Positions 1,117 through 33,692 of a DNA stretch of 64,000 bases are shown here, piece by piece. A model generated the notes under the pieces. The model did not search any database. It was not told the DNA's origin and was given only the letters and a program-made list of their open reading frames with translations. A program made the position numbers and the translations under genes. This DNA is from a virus (taxonomy: Duplodnaviria > Caudoviricetes): the IMG/VR virus record IMGVR_UViG_3300014039_000017, positions 64,001 through 128,000 of that record, one strand, 5' to 3'. Each line of letters begins with the position of its first letter. Position 1 is the first letter of the stretch.

Positions 1117-1153
1117 AAGGAGGTTGGGGTTTAACGACCTCAATCTCCTTTTT
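1117..1153 (+). terminator. Intrinsic terminator/attenuator
   Basis: AAGGAGGTTGGGGT-TTAACG-ACCTCAATCTCCTT followed by TTTATTTT. Confidence 0.75.
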
Positions 1154-1165
1154 ATTTTATATTAT

Positions 1166-5443: not shown

Positions 5444-5446
5444 TAT

Positions 5447-7303: not shown

Positions 7304-7306
7304 TAT

Positions 7307-10300: not shown

Positions 10301-13300
10301 CTTAAAGAATTTGGAATTCAAACTATTTTAGATCAGCAAGAAGAAGCTGCTATGAATGGTACTACACCTGAAACAGATCCAGTTATAATTAATTTGTATG
10401 CAGAATATCAAGAAGAAGTTAATAATGAGGTAAATAGTAATGAAGATCATAAAGCTTATATTAAACAAATTAATTTAGATCAAAAACTTATTAATGAATT
10501 AGATCTAGAAATATCTAAATTTAATAAAACATATAATTATAATAAAGATACAGTTACGGATTCAGTTACAGACCAAGGCAAACAAGCATATGCAGAACCT
10601 ATTTACGACTCAATAACTAAAATATTAAATTTAAATGATTATAGAGTAAATTTAAGTAACAGAGGAGATTTGGCTACAAAAGAAATAGCTGCAGAATTAG
10701 GGATAGATATATCTGAGAACGACAAATTAATGTTATATATAAACGATAATATTAAAATAGAGCAAGAAAATATTATAAAGAAACTTGTAGAGTATTATTC
10801 AACCCTTAAAAACAATAAAATTATTTCTGAGAATGATAACGTTCTAAAATCTGTGCTATGAGTTGCTTTTTCAAGGTATGTAAATGCAGATGTGTTTAAT
10901 TCTACATTTAACGACTTTATAAGAGAATATAATATCGAAAATCCAGAAAATTTAAATGAATTCAGAAATAAGTTTAGAAATGCTATAATTAATTTATCAT
11001 CAGGTAATATTAACTTAAATGAGTTAAATGAACTTGAAGAACTTGGAAATACTTTAAGTGACAATTTATTTGACAATCTTATATATGATTTTACTGGTTG
11101 AAATAACCTAAAAGATAATTTAGATAAAATTCAAAAGTTAAAAAATGAAACACCATCATTTGGCGTTATTGAACTTTTACGTAAGTTTAATCTAGGAGTT
11201 GGTAAAGATGTTATAAGTGTAATAGATTTACTAAATAAAGAAGAGTCGGCATTAGCAGCTAAAGATGATGTAAATAAATATATTATTACAAATCCAGCTT
11301 ATGACTCGGCTTTAAGAGATATTCCTAGAGTAATGGATATGTTAGAATCTCTTATAAGCCCATTAGTTAATGGCTACTCAACAGTTTTAAACCAATATAG
11401 GACTAAAGGAGAATCAGAACCATTGATTGAAAATATCGGAGATTCAACAAGAAATATTCTTGTTTCTGATATAGAATATTTAAGAAATAAAGCAATTGCT
11501 CTAATTACCATTTCAGATAAAAATAAAGGGCAACAATTGTCTTATCATAAAGATTCTGAAAAAGTAAATAAATTAGAGCTTGTAAAAGGATTATTTATAA
11601 AACCTAGTCCAGAAGTAGACTCGTTTGCAGATTCTATTAAATCTAAATCTGGAGGGAAAATTGATATTGAAGGTGTTGCAAATGATGTTTTTGAAGACGA
11701 TATACCATCAGAACTGAATGATGAAAATATCGCTTTGTTTACAAGTAATTTATTTAGGTTTGCATCTGCTTTATATAAAGAGGCGAAAAATAGCGGATTT
11801 ACAGATGAGCAAATTGGAGAGTTCATATCTGAAAGTTTAACATCTTCTGCAATTAATTTAGATTCTGGAGAATATTCAAACGATCCAAATAAACACATTA
11901 CTAATTTATCAACAGCGTATCTCTTAGCTGGAATGATGTCTATAGATTTTAGTGAGACCTATAAGACTATAGATGAAATTTATAAAGAAGAAAAAGATGT
12001 AGCACCGTTATGAAGTCAGAAATTATCTGAACTTATGGCTGTAGCAGCTATGTCTAATTTTAATATATTTAATGCTGTAACAGAGGGAATTAAAAGTAAG
12101 GTTGATAACTACATTAAAGATTATTCCCCTGGAAATCCAGAATATTTTAAAAATTTATCAACAATAAAAAATATGATATTTTTAAAAGGAGGCCCAGGAA
12201 CTGGAAAAAGCTGGGTTGTTGATAAATTTGTAGCAAAAGCTATTAAAAAGCTTGATGAAAAAGCGGAAATAATTGTATGTGCACCAGCTCAATCTCAGTT
12301 AGATAATCTTAAAAAAGCAACTGATTCAGACGATAAACACGCAATCCTTTTAGAGGATTTAATTAATAAAATTTGTCCTCAGAAGCCTAAATATCAAGAA
12401 GCTAGCAAAACTTTTCATGCTGCACATTATAATGAAACTGATATAAAAACAGTTGGAACCGACGCTGGATTGTATACTAACGGGAAAAATAAGTATATGA
12501 TTATTGATGAGGCAACATTTGCATCTGAAGGAGATTTGCAAATAATATCTAAATGAGCTGAATCAAGAAATGTTAAAATTTTACTTACTGGTGATTTAAA
12601 ACAAAATGGTAAAATTGTAGAGTTTACTAACGAAGACGGCAAAACCGGAAAAGTTCTTGCAAATATTGACGATTGTATTTTAGCTACATTGCCAGAACTT
12701 ACAGCGGTAATTAGAAGTGAAAACATTGCTGTGCAAAGCAATACTTTAGCCGTGGGTAATTTAGCGGCAAGATTCGAAACCGAACATAGAAAAAATAAAA
12801 AATTATCTATGTTAGAAGTGTCTAATATTATTAAAGATCCTTTTGTTTCATTACAATATTATGAGGATAAAGATAGTTTTGTTGGATGTAAGATTTTAAA
12901 CTCTGCTGAAGATATTAATCATTATATATCTGACTTCTCAAAATTTGCTAAAGATAATACTGTAGCTATTATAACGGATAACCCTGCTAAATATAGTAGT
13001 GTTCCTGGAACATATAAAAACGTTGTTATTCTTGACTCTAATTCAAGCCAAGGTGGAGAATTTGATTATGTCATAATTGATAAAGATTTTAGTACGAGCA
13101 ACCCAACTCTATATAATAAAGTAATGGACCTTAACACCATGATTAGTAGAGCTAAAAAAGGAATTGTTGTAAATAATCAAAATAACACTTTGGATGGTAT
13201 TATACTAAATAACGAGCTTAGAGATAAAACTATTCTTGAAACGCCAACTTTAATATCTAATAATATTGATGAGTTAAAGAATTGGGATTCTATGGTTAAT

Positions 13301-16300
13301 CAATGAACATCGGAATCTGAAGAGTCGCACAAACCAGATAAGCCATCTAATCCAGATGATAGTCCAAAAAAGCCACAAGGAGAACCAGCACAATCCAGCA
13401 CCTCAAGCCCTGAACCTCCAAAAGAAGAAGTTGATGGTGGGATAGGTAATAGCTTTTTTAATGATACTCTTGACGATAAAGAAGGTGATGCTCCCGGAGT
13501 TTTATCAGCACCTCAAGACTCTAAGGAAATAGAGATAAAAGTAAATCAGGAAACAGAAAATACTAAAAAAGAAAATAAACTTAATTCAGATTTAAATTCA
13601 GTAAATAAGGAAGGAAAAGTTAGTAACAATAGAGTTAATGACGCTAAAAAAATTAATTCTAATTCTAAACCTAATTTAGTATTCTATGATAGAAAAGCAT
13701 TTATTGATGAGCTAAATAGCGATAATACTGCTTTTTGAAAAACTGAAAAAGAAAATAAGTATAGTATTAGATCTAAGTTTTCTGACGATTTAAGCTATAG
13801 AAACTTTGTGCGATTGTTTTCTTCTGGAGTTATGGTTGGTATGGGTTTAGAGCAAAGACATATAGAAAAACTTGCGCTAATGAGTAATATAGATGAAGAC
13901 TTTGCAAGAGCTATTGCCAATGCCTGAAATATGATGTCGGATAGTGATTACTATATATATTGTAAAAAAGTAAAAGGGCAGCAACAAAGGTCTATAATAT
14001 ATTTGCCATTAGTTGTTAACTCTGAAAACTATTTAATACCTATAGGAACATTTTCTGGTGTAGTACAAGGAAAACACCTTGTAAAACAAGGATGTGCATT
14101 ATTTGATATTGCTAAAGCGAGCGAATTAAAACTCATGCCAGATAACGGCTTTAGAAACATTACAAATCTTCCTTATGGTCAAGTAATGTCTTCTGCTAAA
14201 GTCTTTACCGCTAATACATCTGATGGACAGTTTGGTGATAGTAAAGATCCGTTGTATGCTCAGTCAAAATGTTTTAATTTTTATAAAGACAATACTGGTA
14301 AATCGTTTACAGTTTGAACTCCTGTAGATATACTTACTGACGAGGATTTACGTCAAGTATTTAAAACTAAACAAAGCAAAGAAAATAGAACTATATGATA
14401 TACAGATGTTGAATTAAGACAAAATGAAGCTTTTACAAAAGAGGATTTTGAATACCAAAACAAAAAAGCTGATTTAAAAGTAAAGCTAAATAATAAAGAA
14501 ATTTCAATATCTGAATATCAGAAAAGATTAAAAGAATTAAACGAAGAATATAAAGATGTTAAATCTCTAAATCCTGAGGGTACAAATTCTTTGCTTAATT
14601 TAAACGGTAATACAAGGGTATCTAAAGCAGACGGTACCAGTGGAGATAAAATATTAATTCCAGTAAATTTAGTTGAAGCGCATAGGGTTATTAAACTTGA
14701 AGATTTGGTTAACGCTGTAGCTGTTGTTAAGTTTATAACCGGAAGCATATCTTATGGTAATTTAACTACTGAACAGAAAAATTTATTTGAAGGGAATACT
14801 AGAACTGCTGCAATAAATTATATGAAAACTATATTAGGTGATTTTGAATATGATTTATCTGCTGAAGGTGTAGTAGTAGAGCAGTCAAGAGTTAATGCCG
14901 AAAATTTGAGAAAGCTTAGAACTAAATACAGACTACTAGTTGATACTGCATCTAGGAAGTTCTTGAATGCCGTATTGTGCGCATTTAATGACCCTACAAT
15001 AAATATAGACAATAAACTTACTACTAAATTAGATGAAAACTTACTATCTCTTGTACAAAGGACTGTTAAAAGTAAATCTGGAGTAGGTAATGTTAATAGG
15101 GTTGGATTTAAAATAACATTTAATGGCGGTACAAATCCATCGCATACTTATTTTGTAAAATATAATCAAACTACACAAAGTTATGATATATATTCAAAAT
15201 TGCGTGAAAATGGAAGAGATGTTCCTCAGGTAAATGCTTATGAAAATACTCCTATAGCTTCTATATCTGCGGCTGGATTACAAGTTGGGGAAATGATTAA
15301 ATCTAGGCTTGAATCTATTATTAAAGCTATAAATAATACAGAAGCCAATAGTTCAAGTAGACACGATTTTACTCTTGATAACTTAAGAAATTCCAATATT
15401 GTTATAGAACTAGAAACGGAAGTTACTAAACCAGATAAATCTGTTGGACATTATACTTTATCTGACTATGATATAATTTATAATTGCTTTAAAAATGTTC
15501 CAGTTTCAAGTTTTACTAAATTAGAAGAAATATTTAGGAAGGGGTATTTTAAGCACGGAATTACTTTAAATGATGCGTCTTCTATAATAGATGACCGAAG
15601 AGAAACAGTATGAGCTGATCTTCGTGTTAATAATACGACAGAAACAGATAGAGTAAGTAATGTTAAAGCAATGTTACCACCTATCTTTAAAGCCGAAATA
15701 TCGGCTGAAAGCCTTATTAAGGTAAACGATGAATCAGAGATATTTGAATCTACTGATGAAAATACGGAAAACACTTCTCAACAAACAAGAGGAGATATTT
15801 CTACTTTTAAGAAAAATGTTGTATCTTCGTATATGAATACGATTGGAGAAGAAATAACAGAAGATGAAATGTTTCCATTTGATTTTAGTGAAGAATGAAA
15901 TTCATTAAGTGATGTCGATTTTATAAATTATATAAACGAACAACTATCTAAACATAATATTTCTTACGCAATTACTAATTATGATTTTGTAACAGGAAAA
16001 ATAAGTGGAGCAGAAGTACAAGCTGCCGGAAGTATTGATTCTACTGTAGAAGAGTCACTTAAGAATATGGGATTTACTAACATACAAAATATAAATACAA
16101 GTATAAAAGACGGTAATCTAGAAAGCGTAACATTTATGAGCAAAGGAGTTGATTATAAGTATATAATGTATGATAACAAGTTTATAAATAAAGAGCTTTT
16201 TGATAATGTAAGTAATCTAAAAACATATTTAGATATAAATATAAACTCTATAATAAATTCTTTATTAGAAAATCATGATTCAGTACTTGACTCATTATGT

Positions 16301-16414
16301 GATATGGCGGATTCGTTATCAGAAGATGATAATATAAAGGCGCAAGATATTATAGATAATATATATATATTAATTTCAGGTAATTCCGCAGTATTAACCA
16401 GCTGTAAAATTTAA
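7307..16414 (+). CDS. Giant putative virion protein with hydrophobic N-terminal region and central SF1 (RecD-like) helicase domain, 3035 aa (TGA=Trp)
   Basis: 13 same-frame fragments joined by TGA. Helicase motifs at ~12170-13170: I KGGPGTGKS, II MIIDEATF, III LTGDLKQ, V SSQGGEFDYVII, VI TMISRAKKG. Hydrophobic helices at ~8080-8570 and ~9040. Confidence 0.85.
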
Positions 16415-16419
16415 TTAAA

Positions 16420-19400
16420 ATGGGATGTATTAGTAAACAAATTTTAAATGATGAATCTGGGCTTAGACGTATTAAACGTTGGATTAATCATAGACCAGAT
16501 TGGGAACAGCAAATTAGAGACAATTATGAGAATGCTGAGGATATTATTAGAATACTTAAAAGCAAGGGGGAGAACATCTCCCTTGCTGATTTAAGTATTA
16601 ATAATACCCCTAAACAGCAAGAACAAGTTAAATCTGTAAATCAATTTGCGGTAAAAGATGTATCAATAGATGTGAATTATGGAGGCGATAAAGCTGCTTT
16701 AGATAGAATGATTAGAAATTTTAGAAATAAAATTCTAAATAGTTCCGTATATAATATGGCTAAAGGTTCAATGGTTAACGCTAACTTAAAATTAAGAAAC
16801 TCTGAATTTAGTAATGTTTTGAATAAAAATATTTACGATTATAAAATTGAGTTAGTGAACACTATTTGAAATCTAGTTCAAAAAGGCAGAAAAACAGTAT
16901 TTGAATCACCTTACGTATTTATAAATGAAATGAATGAAGCTTTAACGGCTTATGATAATTATAAAGGAGATATAAATTCAGGTGAATATCAAGCCGCTAG
17001 AGATGCATATTCTATACTTAAAAACTTTGATTCCCTATTAGAGCAACAGGCGTCATTTATTAAAGTAAATAAAAAATACACATCAATTAATGAGGCCTAT
17101 GATAAATATATTTATGAAGGTGCAAATACAGATATGTTTAAAACATGGGTGACTAAAGAGGATGTTGATATAGAGGGCCAGTTAAGTGATCTTATATCTA
17201 CAATAATTGAAGCTTTTCCTAAATATAATAAGCTTGGCCAACCAATGTGAGACACTGGAATTTCTATTCCTGAATATAATAGAACAATGTCTTTATTTAA
17301 ATCTTGAATAACATCTGGTATGTTAGCTTCTGATGTTGGAATCAGAGGCGGAAATGCTGAATCAACATTTAAAAAATTTAAAGACTCTATTTTCAGAATA
17401 GATATAAATACATCTGAAAGAGCAAAAGTAGCTGACGAAAATCTTAAAAAAGCATTTGACGCTTTTGTTGGAAAAGCAAAATTAGGCCAAATAAGTCAAG
17501 TAAGTTTGGAGCTAATACAAGGAATTAATGCTATATTTCAATCGGGACTTGACCAACAAATTAAAAACGCAATGCTTAATTTGATGTTTAAAACCGATGA
17601 GAATAGAGGAATAATTACAAGCACATATAACAACACTATATCAAATAAGAGTATACAAGAAAACTATATTTCTAGGGCCGTATATCAAGTTCAAGACTCT
17701 ATAAATAGCGCAATAGATAAATTTAAATGGAGTAGCCCACAAGCTTATAAAAATTTAAAAGCCAAATACGGGATTAGAGTTGATTCAAATAATCACGATA
17801 AAATTTATATTGACGCATATAAGTTAACGTTAATATATAGACCTACAGGAGATATAGAAGTATGCGGAAAAGTTGGTAATGATATCGCGGCACAAATGAT
17901 TACCGATATTTTAAATTTGAACTTACCAACAAACTATAATGATATTTTAATCCAAATGCGAGGTTCTAATAACTATGCCGGAGCATTGTTTAATCAGTTT
18001 AAAAATGCTATAGGCATGGTCTTATTTGCATCTGATCCCGACGCCTTTAATAGTTCTATTAATGACGATAAAAATTGGAAAAACGGTAAGGACGATCCGC
18101 TTAGAAGTGTATTTAACGTTAGAATGTTTAGTACAGGATTACAATCGGCTTCAGAAATGTTGGGAATTGGATGAGGGATTAATATAGCTAGTACTCAAAG
18201 AAATAGTTTTGGAAATAATATAGCAGCATATACATTAACTTCTCTTATAAATCAAATGGGAAGAAATATTTTAAATATGGATAGAAAAGAAAATTCTATA
18301 TTTAAAGACAATCCTGTTTATAAGGAATTTTTTACCCATGTTGGAAAACCATATACTAGAATCGACGTAGATATTTCTAAAAATAAGAAAGCTGCAAGAG
18401 ATTTAACTTTAAATGAGTTGGCAACTACAGGTATTTTTTACGATTTCTTTAAGAATTACAAAAAATTTATATCAGGAGCAAGTAATTATATATATTTTCA
18501 AAATAGTTGTTTCTCTGATAAAAATACACACTGATTAATTCCGTATCATAAAGATTTTAAATTAGATTCTACTAATACATTAGGTGGAACCCTAGATTTA
18601 ATATTTAGTCAAAATAAGCATGATGATGGTGTAAAGATATTTATGGATTCAATATTTAATACTCGTAAAAGCGAGTATTCTAAAATATTCAATAACATAG
18701 CGTCCGATTACATTATGGCTTTTGATTATTTGGCGAATATTAATAAGGTTATTCCCGAAAGTATAAAATCTGATGTACTTAATCTAAAATCTTCTAATGC
18801 AGAAACAAAACTAAACGCATTAAGAAATATATCTAATTATGTCTCTAATAACAAAGATTTTACAGAAGTAATAAAATACGCTTTTGCTGCTAATAAACTA
18901 GATTTTACAGAGGAGTTACACTATAGTAAAGTTGGATTTAATGAAACACTGGATCATGATATACAAATGTATGTTCTAGATTCAACCAAATCTAAATTTA
19001 ATAATAGAATACAGCAACAAAAGGAATTATTTGTAAAAGACTTACACGATTGTGATTTTTCATTTAATGGAGATCTAGATAATGAAACTTATAATCAAGT
19101 AAAATCTACTATTGGTGATTCTTGGTTTGATGATAACCAAGAAATGTTAATTACAAAAGACGGTAAATTAAATCCTCTACTTGAAGCATATTATCTGTCT
19201 GATATTTTATTGTCTAATGGGTATAATGATTTATTGTTTGGAAAAACATTCTTTCACCCAAATAAATACAAGCCAACTAAAGAGGAACTTGATATAAAAA
19301 ATAAAACTGGAAAATGACCAGAATCTTATTTTATACATTCTGAAGCATCCAGACTTAGTGCATCATATAAAAGAACTGTAATTGCTGGTGCAACTACACA

Positions 19401-22400
19401 TACATTTTATCCTGATACATTTGGAATATCTTCTGATATTAATTTCGCTGTAATGGAAGATTATAAAGCCGATCCATATAATATGAATGGTGTAACTTCT
19501 GGTGGAATTGATGCTATGGATGGCTCCGGATGATCGTCCCCAATACAATCATTGCTCGAAAATATGTCATTGCTTGATGCTAAGGTCGGATGGGATAAGA
19601 AAACTATTTTTGGAGATATTGATCCAAAAACAGGATGTCCAACACTTCTTAAATGAGCTGTATATGCGTTAACTAATGAAAGAAGACGTAACTCTGAATG
19701 TAGTGTGATATCTGCAAATAGCATGTTTAAGAAAATGCATAATATTGCATTTAATAAACGGATTAATATTGCTGAGTATTATAACCCAAGTAAAGGAACT
19801 ACCACAACTGTTAATGGAAGAAAAGTTTCTGAAAGTAACTATATTTATTACCAAGATGTAGAATCCGGTAGTATGTTTAGAATAGATAGGCTTGAACAAG
19901 ATCAAAATAATATAGTTCATATATTTGAAACAAAAGTAAATAATTTTGGACAGCCTATAGGAAACACCTTTGAAAAAAGACGAGTCCAACTTAATACTAT
20001 AAATGCAATTGATGAAATATTTGGTGGCGCATACGCAATGCAAAAAGATGACTCTGGACGACTTGTGTGAAGTGACGTAAATAATAGATTGTGCGCAAAT
20101 ATTGTATGTAACGAGGATTTAAAACAAAATATGATTGCTTATGCTGTTAATAAATCAGCAATTAAAGTTGGAGCAAGAAATGTTAATTTAAGGTCTTCTT
20201 GAACAGATAATTCAGAATTGTTATATACAAATATGTCATTAATATTTGGTGGAGTTCAGATGGACGCAGATCACGTTTTAGGGGATGATACAGATGTTAC
20301 AGAAATGTCACAAATGATTTCATCGCTTATACAATCTGGGCTAGCCAAAGAACAAGCTATTGATATTTATAAAGAAATTGGTGAGGTTGTTACAGAATCT
20401 TTAAAAAATAAAAATTATCTAGTATATAACGGAGATTATTCTGCTGTACATGAACTGCTTGGTAGAGAGTTTATTAATTCTTTTTCTAAAGGTACTAGAG
20501 ATACAATGGGATTAGCTCAATCATATCTTATTAAAGCGTCTCAAGAATTAGCAAAAGATCCCAACGCAAAAATTAATATTCCGTTTAGTGACCCTACAGT
20601 ACTTGGAATATTTACATCTAATATAGCATCTGAGATTAATAAGAAAGGAATTAAACGTAAATATGCTGGTATTGCATCAGTACAAGTTCCATCAAGAGGA
20701 ATGATTCAATACTTCAATTATAATGGAAGTCAGATGCTTTATACAACTTTAGCTAAAAAAATTAGAGAAGCAGGATATCAATTTACAGCAAAGCAATATA
20801 TAACAACTCAAAGATATAATAAAGATACTGGTAATTTTGAAATATATGGATTAAATAGGAATGGGGAATTAGCTACAGAAATACATCCTTTTATAAGGCA
20901 GGTTAATCCTTGAGAATTAGATATGGGCGATACTGTAATAGTTGTAAAAAATGGAGTTGCTTCAAAACCTATAGTTCTTGATACATGAAATAATTACGAT
21001 ACAATAAAACATATTACTGATGGCGTATTATATAAATGAAGTATTAGGCCAGTAGATTTAAGGCAATCCGATATAACATTTGAAGTTAATGGAAAACGTT
21101 ATTCTATATATGATTTAGACTCAGTAAGAGCCACACACTATATAAAAGAACTTATTAATAATAAGCAATCTTATTTTGATTTAACTCCAGAAAAGAAGCT
21201 TGTAGTAGATAATACTATAGGTGATGCCGATAAAAATAATCTTATTAAGTTATATAAGACTGCAAATTTAAAAGTTAATGAAGATTTAAAAAAGATTAAT
21301 AACGGAATTAAAATAGGTAGAAATTCTGCATTTGGGGATGTAATTGGGAGAAAATATGTTAATTTAACAGGATCAGTTAATGGTATAGAAGATATTATAA
21401 TAGCAAATAATAATATAAATAACAGAGAACAATTATTTGAGGATATTATAGCAAATAGTAAAAATATTAACGTTGTTAGATTCTTAAAAAGAATTGTCCA
21501 AGAGTTTAATCTAGATCCCCAAGAATTTACGGCTGCTTATACACAGTACTCGTTAGATAGAGAAAACGAACATAATTTTTCAAATGTAAATACAAGATTT
21601 GCAGAAATCATAACTGGAAAAATAAATAAAACTCAATTAGGATTACGTGATGATGATTCTATAGCGGATATTAAAGATGCAAACTTTTTTATAAATAGAA
21701 TTAAAGAAAATGAGTCTTTAAGAGATAGTAATATTAATACAAATAGTTATGATGCTGTATTAAAGGGTATTAACGGAGAAAACTTATATGTAAGGATATC
21801 GCCACTGCATACTGAAATAGATGCGGTTACCGGAGAAAAAATTCCAGAGCAGCTTCCAGGATGATTTGTAAATAATACTACGTTTGATAATGTAGATGGA
21901 AATATATATTACAAAGACAAAGTATTATGCACAGCAGATGGAAAACAATTCTATACGCAGCCAGGAGTTACCAACGTAAATAATATGGTTGTTCTAAATA
22001 GTATAGAACAATTACAAGAGCTACTTGATTCCGACTTATTTAATAGAGTTGAATATAATTATAATTCTAATAATCTAAATGAAATACTGAAATACAGAGG
22101 ATATATTAATGATGAGGGTTTAGTTACAAAAGAAATAAAGTTTCATCAAGCAGCAAATCGTTTATCTCCTGTAGAGACAGACAGATTCAGACTTAGATAT
22201 ATAGTAGGAAAGCAGATTGAAGTTGGAACAGATATAACAAAACTTGATGTAGAATCATTGATTGAAGACCTAAACCAAGAGGTAGAATATGAAAAAGATA
22301 GAGATATTAAACAAATAGCTTATAATAGGTTTAATGCTTTTAAAAAACAGCTTGAAGTCATTGGAGCACGTATTCCAACGCAAAGTATGCAATCTTATAT

Positions 22401-25400
22401 GGGATTGAAAATTGTGGCATTGACAAATAGCATTTATAACGAAGTATATATTCCTGCTGCTATGGCCTGGCTTGAAGGATCTAATAAAAAAATTAAAGCC
22501 AAGTTTGGAAGTATAGTGTATTTTTGCTAACTTGCATTAGCAAAAATATGTATATATGAATATTGATATCGAAAAATTTAAAGCTGAAGTAAATCTTAAG
22601 AAGAATTACCAGCAATTATCAAATGAGTTTAATTGTTCTATAAAAACAATAAAAAGATATGCAAAAGAATTAGATTTAACAGTTGCAACTAAAATTTGTA
22701 AATCAAATGATCCAGAAGTTATAAACTCAGTCAAAAATCTTTTAGAGAAAAATAAAACTAATTTAGAAATTTCTAGAGAACTTGGAATCAGTCCAACGAC
22801 TGCAAGAAAATATACAAAGTTACTTGGAATGGAAACAAATACAGTAAGAAATAAATCGTTAAAAAGTCCAATAACTTTAACTAAAGAACAAGAAGAAATA
22901 ATTTATGGATCTATGCTTGGAGATATGTGTTTAACGACTACACAAAAATCGTATAGATTTTCCATATCTCAAGGAGGTGGGCATGAAGAATACTTTGATC
23001 ATCTAGCTAATATATTTTCTAATGTTATAGGAAAAGTAAATAAAACTCCAAGATACGATAAAAGAACCAAGTTGTTCTACAATAAATTTATGGTTAAATT
23101 TTTAGCATCTACATCTTACAAAAAGTATTATGATATAATGGTTATAAATGGTAAAAAGACTGTAACGGAAAAGTGGGCAAACCATTTAACTGCTAGGGGA
23201 TTAGCTTATTGATTTATGGATGATGGTTGTGTAAACGGAATTATAGCTACAAATGGATTTGCATTAGAAGAAGTTAATTTATTATCTCGTGTAATATTAA
23301 ATAAATTTAATATTCACACAGATGTTCAAAAAGTTTCAAAGAAAGAACAATGAATATTACATATTCAAGTAAAAGACAGAAAGGCGTTTGAAGATATAAT
23401 AAGACCTTTCATAATTCCATCAATGATGTATAAGTTAAAATATAAATAGTTGGATCCTAACCTCGTGAACTGCGGGAAACTCCTTAGAGACTTAACTACT
23501 AACTATATATAGAGATATATATAGGGTGTAACTAATCATTACAGTATAGTAAAAAGGCTAAGTATTGGACAATCCGCAACCAAGCCTCTAAAATAGAGGA
23601 AGGCTCATCGACTATCGAAAAGCGTGCAAGCGAACCAAGTAGAGTAGCGTAAAAGCGAAGTGCGAGGCGTGTTTTTTAAACACGAAGATATAGTCAGGTC
23701 AATTATTAACGTAATTGTGCGTTTAGGACTATGATATAGATAAACTATATATGATGGGTTATGAACTTAATTCAAAAGGAGGATTTGTAGGATTCTCAAG
23801 GCTGCTTAATGACGCTTTAACTCAACAAGAATTTGATGATATTCTTGATTTACCAAAACCAAATGGAATAAAATATGTAATTGGAGAAAATTCTGATTCT
23901 GGATTAAGTGAATTGGATGTTTTAAGTGTTATCGGGGACGTGGCACAAAGAGATTATACATTACTTAAAAATGTAATTAATTCTGATTCAGATCAAGTGC
24001 ATTTTAAACCAGAAGTATCAAAATCTAGTAGATACCGATTCTTAAACATTCTTAATAAGCATAGTCAAACTAAATTATCTAATTATACTAAAGAGGCTGC
24101 TTTAAGAAATTCTGTTGTGTATAAAATTAATACACTGCTTAGAAATGCAAGATTATCTCCATTGGCACATAAATCCGTGGATGATAGTATGGCGCTGTTT
24201 AGAAATATAGCGAAGAAATCAATGCTTGCAGCAACAGAGCTTTCTCTATCATCTGATAATCCTCTTGTTAAATTCCTTATGCAAACTCAAAATATGGTTG
24301 GTAAGGATGTAATTGGTATTACGGCGGTTGGAATGAAAGTATTCTTTGGAGTTACTACTGCATTAAATCAAACAATAACAGATTTAGTTGAGCATATAAA
24401 AACAAAGGATTTTGTTTCAGCACAATCAGATTTTCAAAATTTATTGTTTAAAGATCCTATTACAGGACAAGATATAACATTGGCTAATTTAAATTTTGAA
24501 CCATTGCTTGATTTGCTTAATAATTTATCAGAACAAGACAAATTAGATGTAAATAATGCTTTGGGGGATTATTTAAATGAATTGCCAAAAATAATAGAAC
24601 AATCACAACACACCGACGCAGCGGAAGCAATCTCAGGTTTGCTATCTGCGGCCACTGATTTTTGTAGCAACAAAAAGAAACACTTGCATATTTAAATTTT
24701 TATAAGTAAATTTGCATAAACTTAAAATATATTAATTATGCAAAAAATTTCTGAAGAAAAAATTAATCAAATGTATGAACTTTATAAACAAAATTTTAAT
24801 AAAGTTCAAATTTCAAAACAATTAGGAGTTAATGAAGAAACCGTTAGAAAATATTTAACAAAAAGATTTAATATTCCTCTTAAAGATTATTCTAAAAAAG
24901 TAGATCAACAAAAATTTGAAGAACTCTGAAAACAAGGAAAAACAGATAAAGAAATATCTGATTTTTTTGGAGTTTCTGAATTGACGATTAAAACTTATAG
25001 GACAAAAGGCGATAACGCTGGAAAATTTAATGTTGTTAGATATTTTTCACAAACAGAACAAAAGCTTACGTATGAACAAGATCAATTTATTAGAGGATCT
25101 CTTTTAGGGGATTTAAATTTATCTAAACCAAAGACAAATAGACATATAAACTCTCGTTTAGCAATTGTTCAATGTGAAAAACAAAAAGCGCTTTTTATAA
25201 AAAAAGTAGAAATTTTAGGAGATTTTATGGGAAATTATAAATTAGTAGTCCCGAAACCTGATACTAGAACAGGAAAAATATATACTTCTTATAGAGGAAA
25301 TTCGAAATCACATAAAGTTTTTACGGATTTATATAATGAGTTATATATAAATGGAAAGAAAACAGTAACAAAAGAGTTTTTAGATAAAATAACTTCTCCT

Positions 25401-28400
25401 ACAGCATTAGCGTTTTGATTTATGGATGATGGAACTTTTAATGGAAGTATTGCAACTAACGGATTTTCAGAAAACGAAGTTGATTTGTTAATTAAATGAT
25501 TATCTGAATACTGACATATAATTTCGTATAAAGAAAAAAATTTAAACAAATTTATAATTAGAATATCCGAAAAGTCTAGAAAATATTTCGATAATTTGAT
25601 TAAACCTTATATAATTCCAGAAATGGAATATAAATTAAAATACAAGTAATAAGACAATAGTTAGTGGATAAAACCTCGTGAACTCAGGGAAACTCCTTAA
25701 AGTCTTATATACCAAGCAATTATAGTAATATAATTGTGGATGAAGTAACTACTCATGTATGGTAACAAGTATAAGAATTGGACAATCCTGATCTAAGCTT
25801 CTGAAAAGAAGAAAGAGCAACGACTAATTTGTAGGGTTTAAGTAAACCCGAAGTGCGAGGAATCTAGAAATAGATTAAGATATAGTCTGATCTTTTACGA
25901 AAGTAAAAGAGATTATACGGAAACGGTATAATCGTAACACAAATGAATGCTAAAGAGCTAATATTAGCCAAAATTAACGCTACAGCCGATTTTGCTGATG
26001 CATGAACATTTTTGATTTCTACTGGAAGAACTCCAGAAGAAATATCAAAAATTATGATGTCTCCAATATTTTCTGTAGTACAAAAATATAGTCACTCAAA
26101 TCTATTCTCAACAATAGGCTTAACTAACAGTAAAAAAACAGCTATTGAATTTACACTAGGGTTAAAACAGTTATCTGGTATAAATCTTAGAGATTTAAAA
26201 CTTATAGTTGGGGCTTATAGAGGTAAGGGACTAACTTGAGATAATAAATGTTTCATAGATAAATTGTTATATGAAACCGAGAATGGAGAGATTAAATTAG
26301 ATTCTACTGGAAATCCAATTAGGAGGCAAGTAAAATTAGTTGATGATAAGTATTTAAGTTCAGAAGACGGAATATTTGTTCAGGGAAGCGAAGTACGTAA
26401 AAACATGTTTGAGTTATTTAGTGATCCTAATAACGCCAATAGTACAATAATATCTAAAATACTTCTTGAACATATTGATTATTTAAGAAAACATTCATCT
26501 GATTATAATGTTAATTCTGACGATTCGGATTATGATCCTAGTATAGAGGAAGACTATAATGAAATTGAAAATTATGAAAATGATTATCAAGATCAAGAAT
26601 ACGACTTAGAAAATGATGAGTTAAACGATGAAATAAATAATCAAGTTAATAATTCCGACTTTGGGTCTGATATAAAAATTAAGGTTACTCTAAATTCTCT
26701 TAATAATATAAGAAGATATGTATCAAAATGCATAATTCCTAAAAATGAACAAATCGCAAAAATTAATGAACAGGATCCAGAAGCTATTACAACTTTGACT
26801 GATTTCTATAATAACGTTCTCCCAGCGGTTGAAGAGCAAACAATCTTGGGGGCAATGCTCGGAGTAAATCAAGGACTTAAGAGTAAATTATCAGATTTTA
26901 TAGGCGTCCTTAAAAGAGTTGAAAACTTTGTAAACGCAAGAATCCCTAGAGATCAAAATGGTCCAATATACGAAGCATTTAATATAATTAAATTTTTAGA
27001 GGATGATGAGTACAGGCAAGACTGAATACAAAATTATGCATCAATGAAATCTTATAATAATATATTAAGAACTATTTCAGAAGTACCTAATTTTGCATCA
27101 ATGTATAAACAAAATGCTTTAACATATAGATTGGAATCCCATTCAGCAAGAAATAAAATTAATATTAAACTTGAAAAAGCGATACTTGAGTATAATAGAC
27201 GTGGAAGTTCTGCTACTAGAAAGTTAACTGGTGATGAATGAAGCGTTATGGATAAGTATACTAGAGATTTAATTTTAACTAATTGATTGCTTACACAGAA
27301 TATTAGTTTTACAATTCCAAGTAATCAAGATTTTTACGATAATGGAAATCTTGTATATATAAAAGATGATATTGATGATAATGGAAATGTAATTCATGAT
27401 CATTCTGATGCAAGAAAAATTAATTTAAATACATTTAGTGGACAAGCTTCATTTATAAGATACTTTGAAAATACATTATTTGACATATTAAAACAAAGGT
27501 ATGCTAATGATGAAGATAAGAAAGCATTTTTAAATAATGTCGTAGCATCTCCGGATTTTAGTAGTGTTTATAACCAAAAAACACATCATTTAAAGCTATC
27601 TATTAATTCTATGCTTGCAGATAAAAATCAAGGGTTAAAAACTATATACAGTGAAATCCTAAAAGCATTTAATAATCTTTCCACAGAAAAGATTCCAGAA
27701 CTAAATAACATGACTTTTGGAGATGCTTTATTTATATACAATTCTCTTGTTTATAAGAATGCATTTACAGAAAAAGGATTTACCAGATTATTTGAATCGC
27801 TAATATTTGATGAAAACTCAATAATTAATTCTTATGTAAGCTTTTTATCTGACCTAGATAGTAATACTATCGATACAGGATCTGCGAATGATCTAGATAG
27901 CGATCTTGAAATAAACGATAACGGAACATTTACTTGAGGAATGATAAGAGGTAATATAAATGATTTTCTTAGAAGATTGGCATTTAATCAAGTATCTGCT
28001 AATAAATTTGGGGTATCACTTAATAAAGATTCTGAAAAATCTATATCAGAATTAGCGTTTCAAGATATGTTTGGGCGTCCAACTAAAAACGAATATGGAA
28101 TGGACAAACCATCTATTTATATAGGTGTATCTAATGCAAATGATTGAACTTCAGAAATGCCTTGTATGACACAAGATTTTGAAGATGCTACATTTAGTTA
28201 TGGAGAAAATTATAACCAATCTAATTGTTATAGGTGAAATTCTGAAGTAGTAATAAGAACTGTTATTGACACTCTTGCAGATAGACTTAATTTGACAGTT
28301 GGGGACAATTCCGATTCCGATATAGTTTTATTTGATAGTAATAAATTACCATCATGAGCGGAATATAATAACGGAGTAGAATCACCAATAAGTTATAAGA

Positions 28401-29011
28401 GTTTCTCTGATTATATGAGAGTTATGAGGAGTTCTGCATTTATTAATAATGGTAAAATATTTATTAATACTAACAAAATGAATGTGGATACAACAGTACA
28501 CGAACTAATGCATATATTCTGTGCAAATCTTAAGTTTAATAAAAATGAGGATATAGTTAAACTATATTACGATGCTATTGATGCAGCTAATAATTTATAT
28601 AAAACTAAAATGCGCAAAGAATACGTTGAAATGCGAGAGCAATACAATGGTGATTATGGTTCAGATTTCAAGGAAGAGTTGCTAGTTAAACTAATGTCAG
28701 ATCAATTTACTCATTCATTTAAAAATAGTTTTGGATCACAAAAATGAGTTGATGATATAAAATCTGAAATAGTTAATACAATTAACCAAATTTTTGCTTC
28801 AAATGTAAAAGAGGATATAAATGTAAAGAAATTAGGTGATACAAGATTAGCTGATTTCTTGCAGGCATTTAATTCTAAATTATTTGATACAGATGGAAAT
28901 AACCTTTTAGCAAATATGCAGCTTGATCAAGAAATGAAGACCATTAAGCGAATTCTTATTAATAATGCAGAAGATCCTACTAAAAATAGTAAAATAGAAT
29001 ATAATTGTTAA
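16420..29011 (+). CDS. Virion-packaged two-barrel RNA polymerase (crAss-type) with C-terminal zincin-like domain, 3353 aa after splicing
   Basis: Exons 16420-22482, 23727-24659, 25946-29011 (TGA=Trp). Splicing restores RIPTQ...GS|DYDIDK (catalytic DxDxD) and SAATD|NAKELILAKIN. Also DAMDGSG, KSAIKVG, GVQMDADH. HELMH...EE at ~28500-28680. Confidence 0.9.
22483..23726 (+). mobile_element. Group I intron 1 in RNA polymerase gene
   Basis: 5' exon ends GGATCT (U), intron ends TTTAG (G). IGS TTGGATCC at ~23450 pairs with the exon end. Core elements GAACTGCGGGAAACTCC, GACAATCCGCAACCAAG, TCATCGACTATC, AAGATATAGTC. Removal restores frame and the DYDID motif. Confidence 0.92.
22556..23449 (+). CDS. Intron-encoded LAGLIDADG homing endonuclease with N-terminal HTH-like region, 297 aa
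   Basis: IIYGSMLGDM and GLAYW(TGA)FMDDG motifs; ends TAG 23447-23449. Confidence 0.9.
24707..24714 (+). promoter_or_regulatory. Intron-internal Bacteroidota-type promoter for the endonuclease
   Basis: TAAATTTG (TAnnTTTG) with CTTG 20 nt upstream, 23 nt before the ATG at 24738. Confidence 0.6.
24738..25649 (+). CDS. Intron-encoded LAGLIDADG homing endonuclease, 303 aa
   Basis: Fragments 24738 and 24981 in frame. FIRGSLLGDL and ALAFW(TGA)FMDDG; TAA 25647-25649. Confidence 0.9.
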
Positions 29012-29012
29012 T

Positions 29013-32000
29013 ATGCCTAATTGTAATATAAACTTAGTCTTAAAAGGCAAAGTAAATACTACATTTAATAGCGATAGAGAGCTTGATGCAGAATTGCTGC
29101 ATCGAGCCTCATCGCTTAAAAATTTGTATTTAAAAAGTAATAAAAAATTAGATAAAATATTTCAAACGCTATCTCCTCAAGAAGATGCTGAACAAAAAAT
29201 TAATGAGATTACTAGTATTTATAATAAAGCGTTAAAAGAGCGTGGTATTAATAAATCTAGAATAAAGTTGAAAGACGAGTTTGAAGAAGCTATAGAAGGA
29301 GACGATGATTATAATGGAGGTAAAATTTCTGGAACTATATCAATGTCTAATATAGTAAGCTTAATTGGAGGCAAAAAAGACTTGAGTGAAGCAGCAATTA
29401 CAGCTATTAATAAAGGTTATGAAGAAAACTTTAGAGTAAAAAAGTGTAAAGAACTTGGCTTAGAAGATTCAGAAATATATAATCCTACAATTACGGCTTT
29501 GTGAGAGCATGAAAAAGCTAAAAATATTTTTTCAGCTGAAATTGGTGAGGATGTTCATAAAATAATGGAGTTAATATTTAGACAAGTATCAGATCCATCT
29601 ATTAAAATAGACGAAAGCTCTTGTAAATATTTTAAGGGCTCGGTATTTACAGATACTTATAATGTGCTTAAAAATATTGCTGATAGAATTATTAAAGAAC
29701 ATCCAAATGCTAAATTCTATCCCGAATTTAGTGTATTATCGAAAACTTTAGATAATAATACACAAGAATCTCTAAAAGCCGCTAATGCGCCAGGAGTTAC
29801 ACAATGCTCAGGACGTTTGGACTTACTTATTTTAAATGAAGACGGATCTGTTGAAATATATGATTGAAAATCATCATTAAAACCAGTAGGAGATTGAGCT
29901 GAAACAAATAATAAAGTTTGTAACGAACACGGTTGACAATCTTCTGCTAAAAAAGCCTCTAATTTACTTCAAATTGGAGGTTATGCAGCCATACTTGAAC
30001 AATATGGTCTAGACGTAGGTGATAAAAAGTTAGTAAATTTTAAACTGGATTTTGATGTTGAGAAAGGCTCAGACGGAAAATGACATCCAGTTAATGTTAA
30101 AACAGTTAAATACGATACTCCTGTTGTTGGATCAAAAGGAATATTGCAAACATCTTTGGCAACGTCAAAACAACGACAAATGGAGTATGTATTTACTAAT
30201 AATAAATTTATTGATACAACATCATTAAATCCATCTAACGAGATGCTTAAAAATTTGTTTCCAGATACTGATTTGGCTAATACCAAAGTACAGCAGTTTA
30301 AAGCATCTATTGATTATTACAAGAAAAAACTTAATTTTATTAGAGAAATAACTGATCCTAATAGTAGTGCTTATAAGCAAGGTTTTAGATTCTATTTTGT
30401 AAAAGATGGGATTCCAACTCAAAGTAAAAACCTTGTATTCTGTAAAAACATGGAAGATGTTGACAAGCAACTTGAGAAGTATGTTTCTGAAATAGAAAAA
30501 TTCAAAAGCACAGAAATGACAGCTTTTGCAAAAAACTTACAAAAGGTAATGGATACTAAAGGTCAGTCTGATAATGCTATATATGGTGATTGGCTTAATG
30601 CATTTGGTGAAGAACAGCAACAATTCTTAATAACAGAATTTAAAAAATATTATAATAATGGATGAAACTTTGTTGCAGATGACGCATTAAATTCAAATGG
30701 AATATTTTTATTTAATAAAAACGACCAAATGGATATGATTATTTTGGATTCACATAATGTCAGACAACAATTAACCATAAACGGACAAACAAATATATGC
30801 GGAACAAAACTTAAAGATGGTGAAGATGGGACCGATCCATATAACCTCTTTAAAGCTGAATATGGTAATTTGTTACTAATGAAAGGAGTGTCAATTATTG
30901 CGTCAAATCCAAAACTTTTAAATAATTGTAAACTAAATACAATGAAAGTTATAAATCCATGACATTCTACAGAATTTATGTCATATTCTAATTCTAAACT
31001 TGTTAATAACTGAAACTTTTTAGCAAGGCATAATTCTGAGTATAAAATTCCAACTGTGTCAATGGATTGATTTTTTGATGACGTATCATCTTATATGAAT
31101 GTTGTTCTTGAGTTAAGTAACAGTCTTGAAAATAATATATTTATGGATAAAGCAAGACCTACTGCTGAAGATGCAAATTATAATAATGATACAATATCTG
31201 AAATGATGTGAGAAATGCGTAAGAATTACAAACAAACTTACGATGATCCACACACAGTTGAAGGAGCTGTTTATTTTAATTTATCACAAGCTTTACTTGC
31301 TTCTAATGGAATATCATTTACAGATGAAGAAGATTACGGTAAATATTTAAATTCCGGAATTATTCCTTCTGGAACTTATATTACAGCGGCAGACCAATCT
31401 AATTCAGTCGGAGTTAGAACAATGGGTAAATTAATGTCTAGATATAGAGACTTATATACTACTGAATTCACTAATATTGCAACCCAATTCTCGGAACTTG
31501 TAAGTAAGGTATTTAAAGCATGGGGCTTTAATCCTAGTATAGATAGTCCTACTGCATTTTGAAAACAATTTTTTGAGTTAGGAGATAATAATTCTCCTAA
31601 TCAAAAAGGTTTTAGATTAAAAAACCCAAATAGCTCATTTTTTACTACAGGAAGAACTAAAGAACAAACAGAAAGTGCCCAAAAATTAATTGAATTTATA
31701 GGTGATTATATGTTTAATTTTAAAAACACTAAAATGGGGCCAGAGCAAATTGAAATGGCAAAATTAAATGGATCTTATTATGAAATGCCTTTACAAGAAG
31801 CGAATACTGGGCAATTTATAAGAGACCAATATAAATCTAATGGTATTAAAGGTGTTTTAAAAGGAATAGTTCAAAATGTACGTTATAGAATTAAGCCAGC
31901 TGAGGAAGAAATATTTAGAGGCGGAAGAGTAAAACAAAGGCAATTTGAGAAAGAGAAAAGTGAGTACGCAGGAGCATTTAATAGATATACAGATATAAGT

Positions 32001-33692
32001 CCGAGAGAAAGAGAAGCATTACTTTTAGACCCAAATAGAGTATGAAATACAGATATTCAAACATTGTTTCTAGAAACCGCAGCCGCAGCTTGTGTTACAA
32101 AAGCATCTAAACAAATGATTCCACAATTTTTGGCTTACAAAAGCGCTGTGGTATGAGCCAATAGTATTGGTGGAGCTAAAACTCCAGAGCTTCTAGAATG
32201 AATGGATAAATACGTAGATAGTAAAGTGCTTCGTAGGAAAATTATGGATGAATCTCTTGATACAGTTAAAGATATAATAAATGCATTAAAGGGTTTTACA
32301 TCATTCATTACTTTAGGTGGTAATACTAGAGCTTTTGCGAGAGAGATGATAGTAGATATATACCAATCAAATACTAGAGCATTTACACAACAGCTACCAG
32401 GTGTAACAAACTCTGATTTTGCTGAAGCGGTAGCCCTTGTTGGACGGCATAAACCATTGACTCTTGAAGGCGAAAATATAATTACAGATATATGCAGAAG
32501 AATGGCAATGTCTTCATATTCTATGACAGAAATGGCAGAGTCTAGTAAAATTAAAAAATATGGAATTAGACAAGGATTCGATAAAATGGCATATTGGACC
32601 TCTTCTCTACCTGATGACTATTTTAGAATGGCAATTTGTGTAGCAAAAATGTTACACGATGGATGTTTCGATGCTTATGTAGAAGATAAAGACGGAGTAC
32701 ATTATGAAATATGAAAGGATAAACGATTTAATAAGCTATTTGATTCTAAAGGGAATATTATAGAGTCAAAAGATACTGATGATATAAAAACCTGAACGGA
32801 ACAAAACGAATTATACAAACAATATATTAACGCTTGAAAAATACAAGGAATAGATATTGAATATGGAGATACGTTACCAGATTGCTACTCGCCAGAAGAA
32901 AAAGCAACATTAAGAACAGCGGCATCTAGTTTGTTTGGATTCTTTGATACAGAAGATAAGTCTTTATTAACAGCTACTTTACTTGGTTCTGCATTTATGC
33001 AATTTAAAACATTTATGAGTGCTAAAATTAATCAGCACGCTAAATCGCCTGGATTCGAAAATCAGTGAAGGACATATATTGAAAAAGATAAAGACGGGAA
33101 AGAAATATGAATGATAGCTAGCACGGAAGAAGAAATAGCTAAGGGAGTTCCTCCGATTCAATATGTTACAAAAGATGAAGTAACTGAAGAAGATATTAAT
33201 AATAAAAATGCGAGACCTGTATTTGTAACAGAAGGAACTTATACTAAAGGTATGATACAAGCTACAGGAAGCGTTTTAATGCAAATAGCAAATTGTAAGT
33301 CTCAAGAAGAATTTAATAAAATACTTAGTGATCCTATTAACAGAGGCCAATTATTAAATGGCCTTATGGATACTTTAGGACTATTAATATTTGCTGCATT
33401 AATTAAAGCTCTATATGGAGAAGATGTTGTAAATAATAAATCTGAGCAAGATTGGTGAACACAATGATCCTATGGAGTGCTTATGGGATTTGCAGATGAT
33501 GGACCAGTTAATAAAGTAATAGGAAGCGTAGCAGGAAGTATAGAACCACCAGCAATTGGAATTATACAACAATGAGCTAATACTGCTGGATCTGTTTTAT
33601 CTGGAAGTAAATCTATTTGAAATGGTTTAGTTTCATCATTTGGTATGACTAGAGAATGGTCTGGTGCAGGTATTTTAAGTAAACAAAATTAG
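29013..33692 (+). CDS. Giant putative virion protein with RecB-like PD-(D/E)XK nuclease domain, 1559 aa (TGA=Trp)
   Basis: Eight same-frame fragments joined by TGA; TAG 33690-33692. Motifs IGEDVHKIME...PEF...GRLDLLI...IYDW(TGA)KSS...LQIGGYAAIL at ~29540-30000. Confidence 0.85.

Follow-up and report, generated by a model that had tools for sequence, protein, structure and literature searches.

Paired cysteines at the facing ends of the giant RNA polymerase cargo proteins in a crAss-like phage locus and its relatives

The subject of this analysis is a block of three consecutive giant genes in a phage genome (Duplodnaviria; Caudoviricetes), encoding a helicase-like protein (P1), a putative virion RNA polymerase (RNAP; P2) and a protein with a nuclease-like stretch (P3), and in particular the cysteines (Cys) located where the ends of these proteins face each other. 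The 64,000-nucleotide stretch analysed, here called the window, corresponds to bases 64001-128000 of a 146.8 kb virus record in IMG/VR (IMGVR_UViG_3300014039_000017). An original prediction, made from the DNA sequence, had proposed that matched terminal Cys chain the three proteins head to tail.

Cargo genes and terminal cysteines of the window

Using translation table 11 the cargo region appeared as a field of short open reading frames (ORFs); reading TGA as Trp opened long frames on the plus strand, and reading TAG as Gln was of no help. With TGA as Trp all six termini quoted in the original prediction proved correct and correctly placed. The RNAP gene, treated there as one unit, is not a single ORF across 16420-29011 and consists of three exons and two insertions of about 1.25 kb. 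This was determined by tblastn using the intron-less homolog P0004 (3366 amino acids, aa) as query, of which residues 1-2030, 2031-2331 and 2332-3366 aligned to three blocks of the window. The cargo genes and their junction Cys codons are:

7307..16414, plus strand: P1, 3035 aa, ORF under TGA=Trp, superfamily 1 (SF1) helicase-like domain at aa ~1604-1954
16403..16405, plus strand: Cys codon of P1 at junction 1 (Cys 3033, third residue from the end)
16420..22482, plus strand: P2 exon 1, 2021 aa, ending ..AWLEGS just before the catalytic motif
16426..16428, plus strand: Cys codon of P2 at junction 1 (Cys 3; N-terminus MGCISK)
23727..24659, plus strand: P2 exon 2, 311 aa, starting DYDIDKLY (catalytic Asp triad motif)
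25946..29011, plus strand: P2 exon 3, 1021 aa, C-terminus ..IEYNC
29006..29008, plus strand: Cys codon of P2 at junction 2 (last residue)
29013..33692, plus strand: P3, 1559 aa, ORF, C-terminus ..ILSKQN without Cys
29022..29024, plus strand: Cys codon of P3 at junction 2 (Cys 4; N-terminus MPNCNI)

The helicase label given to P1 in the original prediction rests on Pfam matches to AAA_30 (43.5 bits, cut-off 27) and AAA_19 (42.5 bits, cut-off 25.1), by which P1 qualifies as an SF1 helicase; UvrD_C_2 was also matched, under its cut-off (20.2 bits, cut-off 27.4). The nuclease label of P3 has a less secure basis, namely a PD-(D/E)XK-like stretch at aa 175-331 with a Pfam score below the cut-off (PDDEXK_1, 20.6 bits, cut-off 22, E=5e-4), and a fragment from a relative also gave a weak match. 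Sequence searches of the PDB with P1, P3 and the RNAP profile gave no match. The catalytic motif of P2 spans the joint of exons 1 and 2 (GS/DYDIDK, with the slash at the joint) and is thus interrupted by the first insertion. P2 is therefore a giant protein with the DFDxD-type Asp motif of crAss-like virion two-barrel RNAPs; relatives carry GSDFDIDK (phi14:2 gp077) or GSDFDVDK (crAss001 gp50), and among full-length family members DYDID was found in 84 and DFDID in 9. The phi14:2 protein with DFDID, gp077, corresponds to the crystallised virion RNAP ("gp66").

With P2 counted as the predicted spliced product of 3353 aa the trio sums to 7947 aa, in agreement with the predicted length of about 7,900 residues. 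Cys is scarce in all three proteins, as had been claimed (P1: 11/3035, 0.36%; P2: 15/3353, 0.45%; P3: 14/1559, 0.90%; versus 1.75% in 40 other ORFs of the window), and each of the four inner ends carries one (residues 3033/3035, 3, 3353/3353 and 4), all within about 11 residues of the facing ends. The outer ends, the P1 N-terminus (MANNNDW) and the P3 C-terminus, are both free of Cys as predicted, and P1 ends ..LTSCKI. In the 40 other ORFs a Cys was present at positions 2-8 in three cases and within the last six residues in three cases. By our own arithmetic the probability of finding Cys at all four inner ends from composition only is about 1e-6.

Conservation and covariation with cargo architecture

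RNAP homologs were collected using a word-index search with the conserved RNAP core (127 homologs) and an exhaustive profile search, which returned 1111 RNAP clusters at 50% identity, and the best 150 of these 1111 were used. Word-index searches with the C-terminal region of P1 and the N-terminal region of P3 gave at least four proteins each. In the RNAP family 225 of the 237 proteins of at least 1800 aa had a Cys at positions 2-9, and 129 of the 132 homologs of at least 2800 aa had one within the last six residues, while composition predicts a terminal Cys in about 3%; the conservation called for by the original prediction was found. Homologs with very few Cys retained exactly these two terminal ones (P0036, P0163 and P0236, with 2-4 Cys in more than 3000 aa); the 3147 aa of P0036 include only two, at positions 5 and 3146, and the single Cys in the 2144 aa of P0151 is at position 3. 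The C-terminal Cys was also kept in the P1 homologs P0122-P0124. Alignments of the termini gave the same picture. The Cys was the sole invariant column in 124 aligned RNAP C-termini, where mean column identity was 12%, and again in 26 aligned P3 N-termini; it was the only column reaching at least 90% in 30 aligned P1 C-termini (30/30), and in 222 aligned RNAP N-termini only the start Met and the Cys reached that level.

A profile-based scan of IMG/VR retrieved 80 loci with 10 kb flanks, 55 of which read TGA as Trp and 25 use the standard code. A Cys was present in all distinct terminal strings at the P1 C-terminus (22/22), the P2 N-terminus (22/22), the P2 C-terminus (19/19) and the P3 N-terminus (20/20), that is in 83/83 distinct junction-end strings, and in none of the distinct strings at the outer P3 C-terminus (0/11); no Cys was found at any readable P1 N-terminus. 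The rule spans homologs down to 26% identity and three genetic codes. Since they are conserved across the RNAP homologs and the IMG/VR loci, the terminal Cys are not due to chance.

Seven apparent exceptions to the rule were inspected at the DNA level. In P0019, P0033, P0077, P0110 and P0205 the called start lies downstream of the true one, which reads M-x(1-2)-C; P0011 is split by exon, and ..VYNC forms the end of its final piece. The homolog P0250 stands alone amid bacterial genes, and the inspected part of its contig contains no partner genes. Every inspected exception within a phage cargo block is therefore a gene-calling artefact. The inspected set leaves out P0060 as well as the group of P0013, P0014, P0016, P0031, P0045 and P0146, in which several are N-terminally truncated by length. 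By the Cys rule one RefSeq start and a number of gene calls in databases appear to be wrong, and annotators could use the rule to find the true starts and ends of these giant genes.

Two observations on individual loci arose from this inspection. P0019 has an in-frame TAG 12 codons ahead of its conserved ..YIKYNC tail in two independent samples; in the independent metagenome contigs L087 and L088, from a TGA=Trp phage, it lies at about 20416-20418, before the RNAP tail ..NSYIKYNC, and could be read through, a second recoded stop or the mark of a tail-less variant. In contig L109 (8001-16679) an RNAP-family homolog of 2892 aa is located among bacterial genes (TamB, PRK, SLT, YqeY, HD), with no P1 upstream and a C-terminus without Cys, and the contig stops about 100 nucleotides (nt) further.

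Homologs of crAss001 gp50 were found in 136 published genomes, and the rule was also followed into distant cultured phages. The phi14:2 trio contains only four Cys over its 5398 aa, and each of them is at a junction end: the last residue of gp078 (1797 aa), residues 3 and 2179 of gp077 (2180 aa) and residue 3 of gp076 (1421 aa). The Cys of the crAss001 trio are residue 2339 of 2341 in gp47, residues 5, 1334 and 2404 of 2412 in gp50 and residue 5 in gp49. Phage DAC15 and IAS virus follow the same rule. Cys makes up 0.04-0.16% of the cargo block compared to 0.5-2.3% of other ORFs of the same phages, a more than ten-fold depletion in every phage checked. The P1 gene of crAss001, DAC15 and IAS virus lies on the other strand from P2 and P3, so the Cys effect cannot be a DNA or mRNA signal at a gene junction. 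The chain called "gene-ordered" in the original prediction would accordingly follow the order of the proteins, and strict gene order is not required. The annotated giant genes of cr7_1 (L102) and cr52_1 (L099) contain 26-148 in-frame stops under table 11 (recoded), and the rule is still obeyed.

Natural tests are provided by phages in which two of the cargo proteins are fused or a further protein is inserted. Fusions of P2 and P3 (p-crAssphage, crAss002, Rudgehvirus; Intestiviridae) have kept only the Cys pair between P1 and P2. In p-crAssphage gp45 ends ..SFSCM and the 4070-aa gp44 starts MSC and has no Cys near its C-terminus, nor any closer than about 200 residues to the estimated site of fusion. 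The single Cys of Rudgehvirus P1 is residue 2017 of 2018, and the 4098-aa fusion begins with MAC and lacks Cys beyond residue 1802. Likewise the single Cys of crAss002 gp32 is residue 2019 of 2020, and gp33 (L094 11088-11190) has, 32 codons past the RefSeq start, an in-frame MSC like that of p-crAssphage gp44 and Rudgehvirus; this internal MSC is probably the true start of crAss002 gp33, with the RefSeq start placed 32 codons too far upstream. Fusions of P1 and P2 (Fpv1 and six Suoliviridae) have kept only the pair preceding P3. Among the 4401 residues of Fpv1 gp33 only residue 4400 is a Cys, and gp34 begins with MAC; the six Suoliviridae fusions (4460-5443 aa; the cr1_1 fusion has two Cys in 4551 aa) have an N-terminus without and a C-terminus with Cys, and the next protein has its Cys at residue 3-6.

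In four divergent lineages, with TAG=Gln and standard codes, a protein of 791-1007 aa is inserted between P2 and P3 (L089 19705-22152; L105 22410-25433; L106 20218-22593; L107 20544-23009) and carries a Cys at both ends; that of L106 has only two, residues 3 and 791. The inserted proteins belong to no known family, and no similarity to the window proteins could be detected for the one in L089 (815 aa). The number of Cys pairs equalled the number of breaks in every architecture examined, which gives 2, 4 or 6 terminal Cys depending on architecture, and there was not one exception in the form of an unpaired single Cys at a junction. Two expectations of the original prediction were thereby realised: the Cys are absent from the fusion points in both kinds of fusion, and a pair is found at every break between consecutive cargo polypeptides, including both ends of the inserted protein. 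A single Cys also lies near the C-terminus of two gp45-like upstream cargo proteins, p-crAssphage gp47 (L093 588-3161; residue 856 of 857) and crAss002 gp30 (L094 393-2066; residue 550 of 557), for which the next protein has no facing Cys.

Across the sequences compared, each break in the cargo series was thus shown to be flanked by one Cys within about 1-11 residues of the upstream C-terminus and one within the same distance of the downstream N-terminus, and the outer ends were shown never to carry a junction Cys in proteins that are otherwise strongly Cys-depleted. The comparative data confirmed that the junction Cys are real, are strongly conserved and track the architecture of a cargo module that is itself known. 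The computational test named in the original prediction thus came out in support of its interpretation, and the mechanism by which the Cys would act is plausible.

A proposed disulfide-linked thread and its alternatives

Based on the pattern of the junction Cys we consider it reasonably probable that the cargo proteins are connected head to tail by inter-protein disulfides and so form a single thread. Each facing Cys pair would form a disulfide in the assembled virion, and P1-S-S-P2-S-S-P3 (7947 aa here) would act as a nearly linear pseudo-polyprotein. Links at the extreme ends would leave stubs of a few residues only, so that the chain could pass the portal and tail channel partly unfolded and in a fixed order and stoichiometry, and the three proteins would be released once the reducing cytoplasm of the host severs the links. 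The general depletion of Cys would reflect selection against mispaired cross-links in that oxidising environment; a more than ten-fold depletion makes sense if stray thiols are harmful where the cargo resides. We infer 1:1:1 packaging, threading through the tail and reductive release, as the original prediction had done. A further step, in which the order within a thread of ~5,400-8,000 or more residues sets the order of ejection and reduction by the thioredoxin system of the host acts on arrival as the switch that releases and activates the virion RNAP, is a tentative and rather doubtful extension.

What has been reported for crAss001 is compatible with such a thread. Inter-subunit disulfides exist in its virion, and the cargo sits in the capsid and is thought to exit partly unfolded through constrictions under 50 A, in an extrusion order probably set by packing and mutual interactions (PMC10172136). 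The window RNAP is probably packed in the virion and ejected as well, given its position in a late plus strand block and the analogy with the phi14:2 and crAss001 proteomics. A complex prediction was performed with the P2 C-terminus (87 aa, with alignment) and the P3 N-terminus (163 aa), using the window segment and database homologs. It gave 0.32 versus 0.00 for the best of three controls and weakly favours the pairing; of 80 complexes with solved structures 58 attained the mark applied to such predictions, as did 2 of 110 mismatched pairs, and at 0.60 or under it was attained by only seven of the 80 and by both mismatches that passed. Contact agreement between runs was at least 26%, and the pLDDT (predicted local distance difference test score) of the partner was at least 43.

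Several points weigh against this interpretation. The complex prediction is weak and its pLDDT values are low, the literature searched yielded no biochemical evidence for an S-S bond between cargo proteins, and the comparative data show pairing and cannot separate a disulfide from another thiol-based link. The host cytoplasm is reducing and the gut is anoxic, conditions that offer oxidation no obvious time or place, and crAss001 virions were purified in air. In some phages (crAss001 gp50, cr10_1) the C-terminal Cys lies 9-11 residues from the end. Finally, the correspondence between the window and crAss001 rests on the catalytic motif, the sizes, the order and the Cys rule, as sequence homology was undetectable: phmmer and hhalign comparisons of the window proteins with crAss001 gave nothing significant, phmmer and tblastn revealed no similarity of the RNAP to characterised crAss-like virion RNAPs, and hhalign of the RNAP family alignment A1 with crAss001 gp50 gave a probability of 1.4% (E=0.036), though over the right region. 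A locus search with the N-terminal 500 aa of the RNAP alone gave no match, and tblastn of exon 1 against published phages matched only two unannotated records (L002, L003).

The facing Cys might instead bridge a metal ion such as Zn in a labile clasp that would still tie the proteins end to end. Thiolates are good ligands, such a clasp would form in the reducing, anoxic setting where disulfides are hard to make, and an acidic or amide residue often precedes the C-terminal Cys (..NNEC, ..EDCK, ..YNC). None of the four terminal alignments, however, has a second conserved Cys, His, Asp or Glu column, and structural metal sites normally need 3-4 ligands, of which one per terminus is conserved here; we therefore regard a clasp as unlikely, and the shared metal sites that the original prediction had named as an alternative to disulfides are the less likely form of the link. 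One shared four-Cys centre is at odds with a number of terminal Cys that varies between 2, 4 and 6 with architecture. Each Cys could also act alone, as an anchor to the portal, the capsid interior or other cargo, or as a modification site, in line with the many disulfides of crAss001 structural proteins and the partnerless Cys near the C-terminus of the gp45-like cargo of p-crAssphage and crAss002. It is quite improbable that this explains the rule, as it accounts neither for the pairing of C- with N-termini, the joint loss on fusion and the Cys at both ends of the inserted protein nor for the Cys-free outer ends and the lack of unpaired junction Cys.

A different pairing, in which the two RNAP ends bond each other in a closed loop and P1 bonds P3, would be equally compatible with the Cys counts of the three- and four-protein systems. 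It would require re-pairing at every fusion, and a looped protein of 3353 aa could not thread a narrow channel. In systems with either fusion (P1 with P2P3, or P1P2 with P3) no protein has Cys at both ends and only a bond between consecutive proteins is possible, which removes self-closure of P2 and makes this pairing very unlikely. We give still less credence to thiols that serve a ligation chemistry (thioester exchange) producing a true polypeptide, or that are relics of ancestral polyprotein cleavage sites. According to the phi14:2 preprint, the proteins of some phages are fused as a polyprotein, for which cleavage is likely, and a zincin-like protease is present in P1 orthologs; the fused forms of Rudgehvirus, Fpv1 and cr1_1 nevertheless have no Cys near the fusion point, and a relic would not stay the sole invariant residue. 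We know of no ligase for joining cargo proteins. Mass spectrometry of crAss001 virions lists gp47, gp49 and gp50 as separate proteins (PMC10172136). Chance, composition or a nucleotide-level signal at gene junctions might be suspected, as the observation was made post hoc in a single AT-rich genome whose genes are tightly packed. Such an origin is next to impossible given the composition estimate in the window alone, the hundreds of homologs that conserve the feature and the persistence of the rule where P1 lies on the other strand ~11 kb from the P2 start; the comparative data refute it. The four-Cys metal centre, self-closure of the RNAP, modification at each terminus and the cleavage-site relic were rejected for the reasons given above.

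If reduction does act as such a switch for the RNAP, the phages most abundant in the human gut would share a redox-gated start of infection. Crassviruses have to pack, order and eject some 0.7-0.9 MDa of RNAP-associated protein, and for the way in which they do this the architecture-tracking Cys pairs provide a concrete and cheaply testable hypothesis, that the cargo travels as a disulfide-stitched thread.

Known systems, introns and neighbouring genes

The closest counterparts of the window trio are gp078-gp077-gp076 (GenBank tags) of Cellulophaga phage phi14:2 and gp47-gp50-gp49 of Bacteroides phage crAss001, which likewise comprise three giant proteins, the RNAP being the middle one, and share the motif GSD[FY]D[IV]DK, the junction-Cys rule and the depletion of Cys. 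They were found in virions. The window proteins are larger (7947 versus 5398-6102 aa in total), use TGA as Trp, have an RNAP gene split by two introns and have no detectable sequence similarity to them. The interchain disulfide of AB toxins holds the catalytic and the translocating chain together until they arrive in the reducing cytosol, and thus resembles the proposed link in surviving membrane passage before being cut by cytosolic reduction; these proteins are unrelated, and there a single bond lies within a nicked single gene product, with no series of giant proteins and no virion. The disulfides between separate polypeptides in crAss001 (portal-vertex gp57 dimer, tail hub, ring proteins) staple parts that stay in the particle, while those considered here would join ejected cargo (PMC10172136). 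Internal head proteins of the podoviruses T7 and P22 are also expelled through the tail before the DNA, as non-covalent ejection stacks (cited in PMC10172136); the literature consulted names neither covalent end-to-end links nor a terminal-Cys rule for them. The N4 (Schitoviridae) virion RNAP gp50 is similarly giant (~3500 aa), packed in the head and expelled with gp51 and gp52 into the host to start transcription; a single polypeptide unites its catalytic core with N-terminal and C-terminal domains, which a Cys-linked P1-P2-P3 would mimic (PMC13434306).

The cargo proteins themselves are already known, and what is new is the junction-Cys property. The 2026 N4 paper treats the relation among the three crassvirus proteins as an open question and mentions neither disulfide nor cysteine (PMC13434306). 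The word cysteine is absent from the crAss001 atlas, which reports disulfides only for portal-vertex and tail proteins (PMC10172136), and the phi14:2 RNAP preprint mentions neither cysteine nor disulfide. No description of a terminal-Cys tether was found in the Crassvirales literature searched, a search outside which most subscription papers lie, and this suggests that an end-to-end, probably disulfide, cargo tether is undescribed.

The two insertions in the RNAP gene were delimited by the gaps in the P0004 alignment and each contains an ORF for a LAGLIDADG endonuclease:

22483..23726, plus strand: intervening sequence 1, ~1244 nt, with boundaries accurate to within a few nt
22556-23449: LAGLIDADG endonuclease ORF in intervening sequence 1 (PHROG 11023, E=2e-15)
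24660..25945, plus strand: intervening sequence 2, ~1286 nt
24738-25649: LAGLIDADG ORF in intervening sequence 2, paralogous to the first (PHROG 11023, E=3e-13)

Judging from the endonuclease ORFs and from exons colinear with an intron-less homolog, as in group I introns with a LAGLIDADG homing endonuclease, the insertions are probably LAGLIDADG-carrying introns. No Rfam group I intron match was obtained at E<=0.01 within 22000-26500, where an internal ORF may break the model. The two intron ORFs have alike C-termini (..YKLKYK), and the noncoding tails that follow them share sequence. Reading through from exon 1 into the first intron (22483-22530) produces an artefactual ORF end, ..VYFC, the terminal Cys of which is not countable. 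The site of the first insertion is a recurrent hot spot, since dozens of family "proteins" of ~1900-2450 aa end at ..WLQGSDY, including P0002, P0003, P0017, P0020, P0025-P0029 and many others.

Two further genes, given for context, head the same plus strand block and lie outside the Cys-linked series:

1124-5443, plus strand: protein of 1439 aa, 0 Cys
5447-7303, plus strand: protein of 618 aa, 1 Cys

Their positions match those of the Cys-poor proteins located upstream of P1 in phi14:2, crAss001, Fpv1 and the Suoliviridae.

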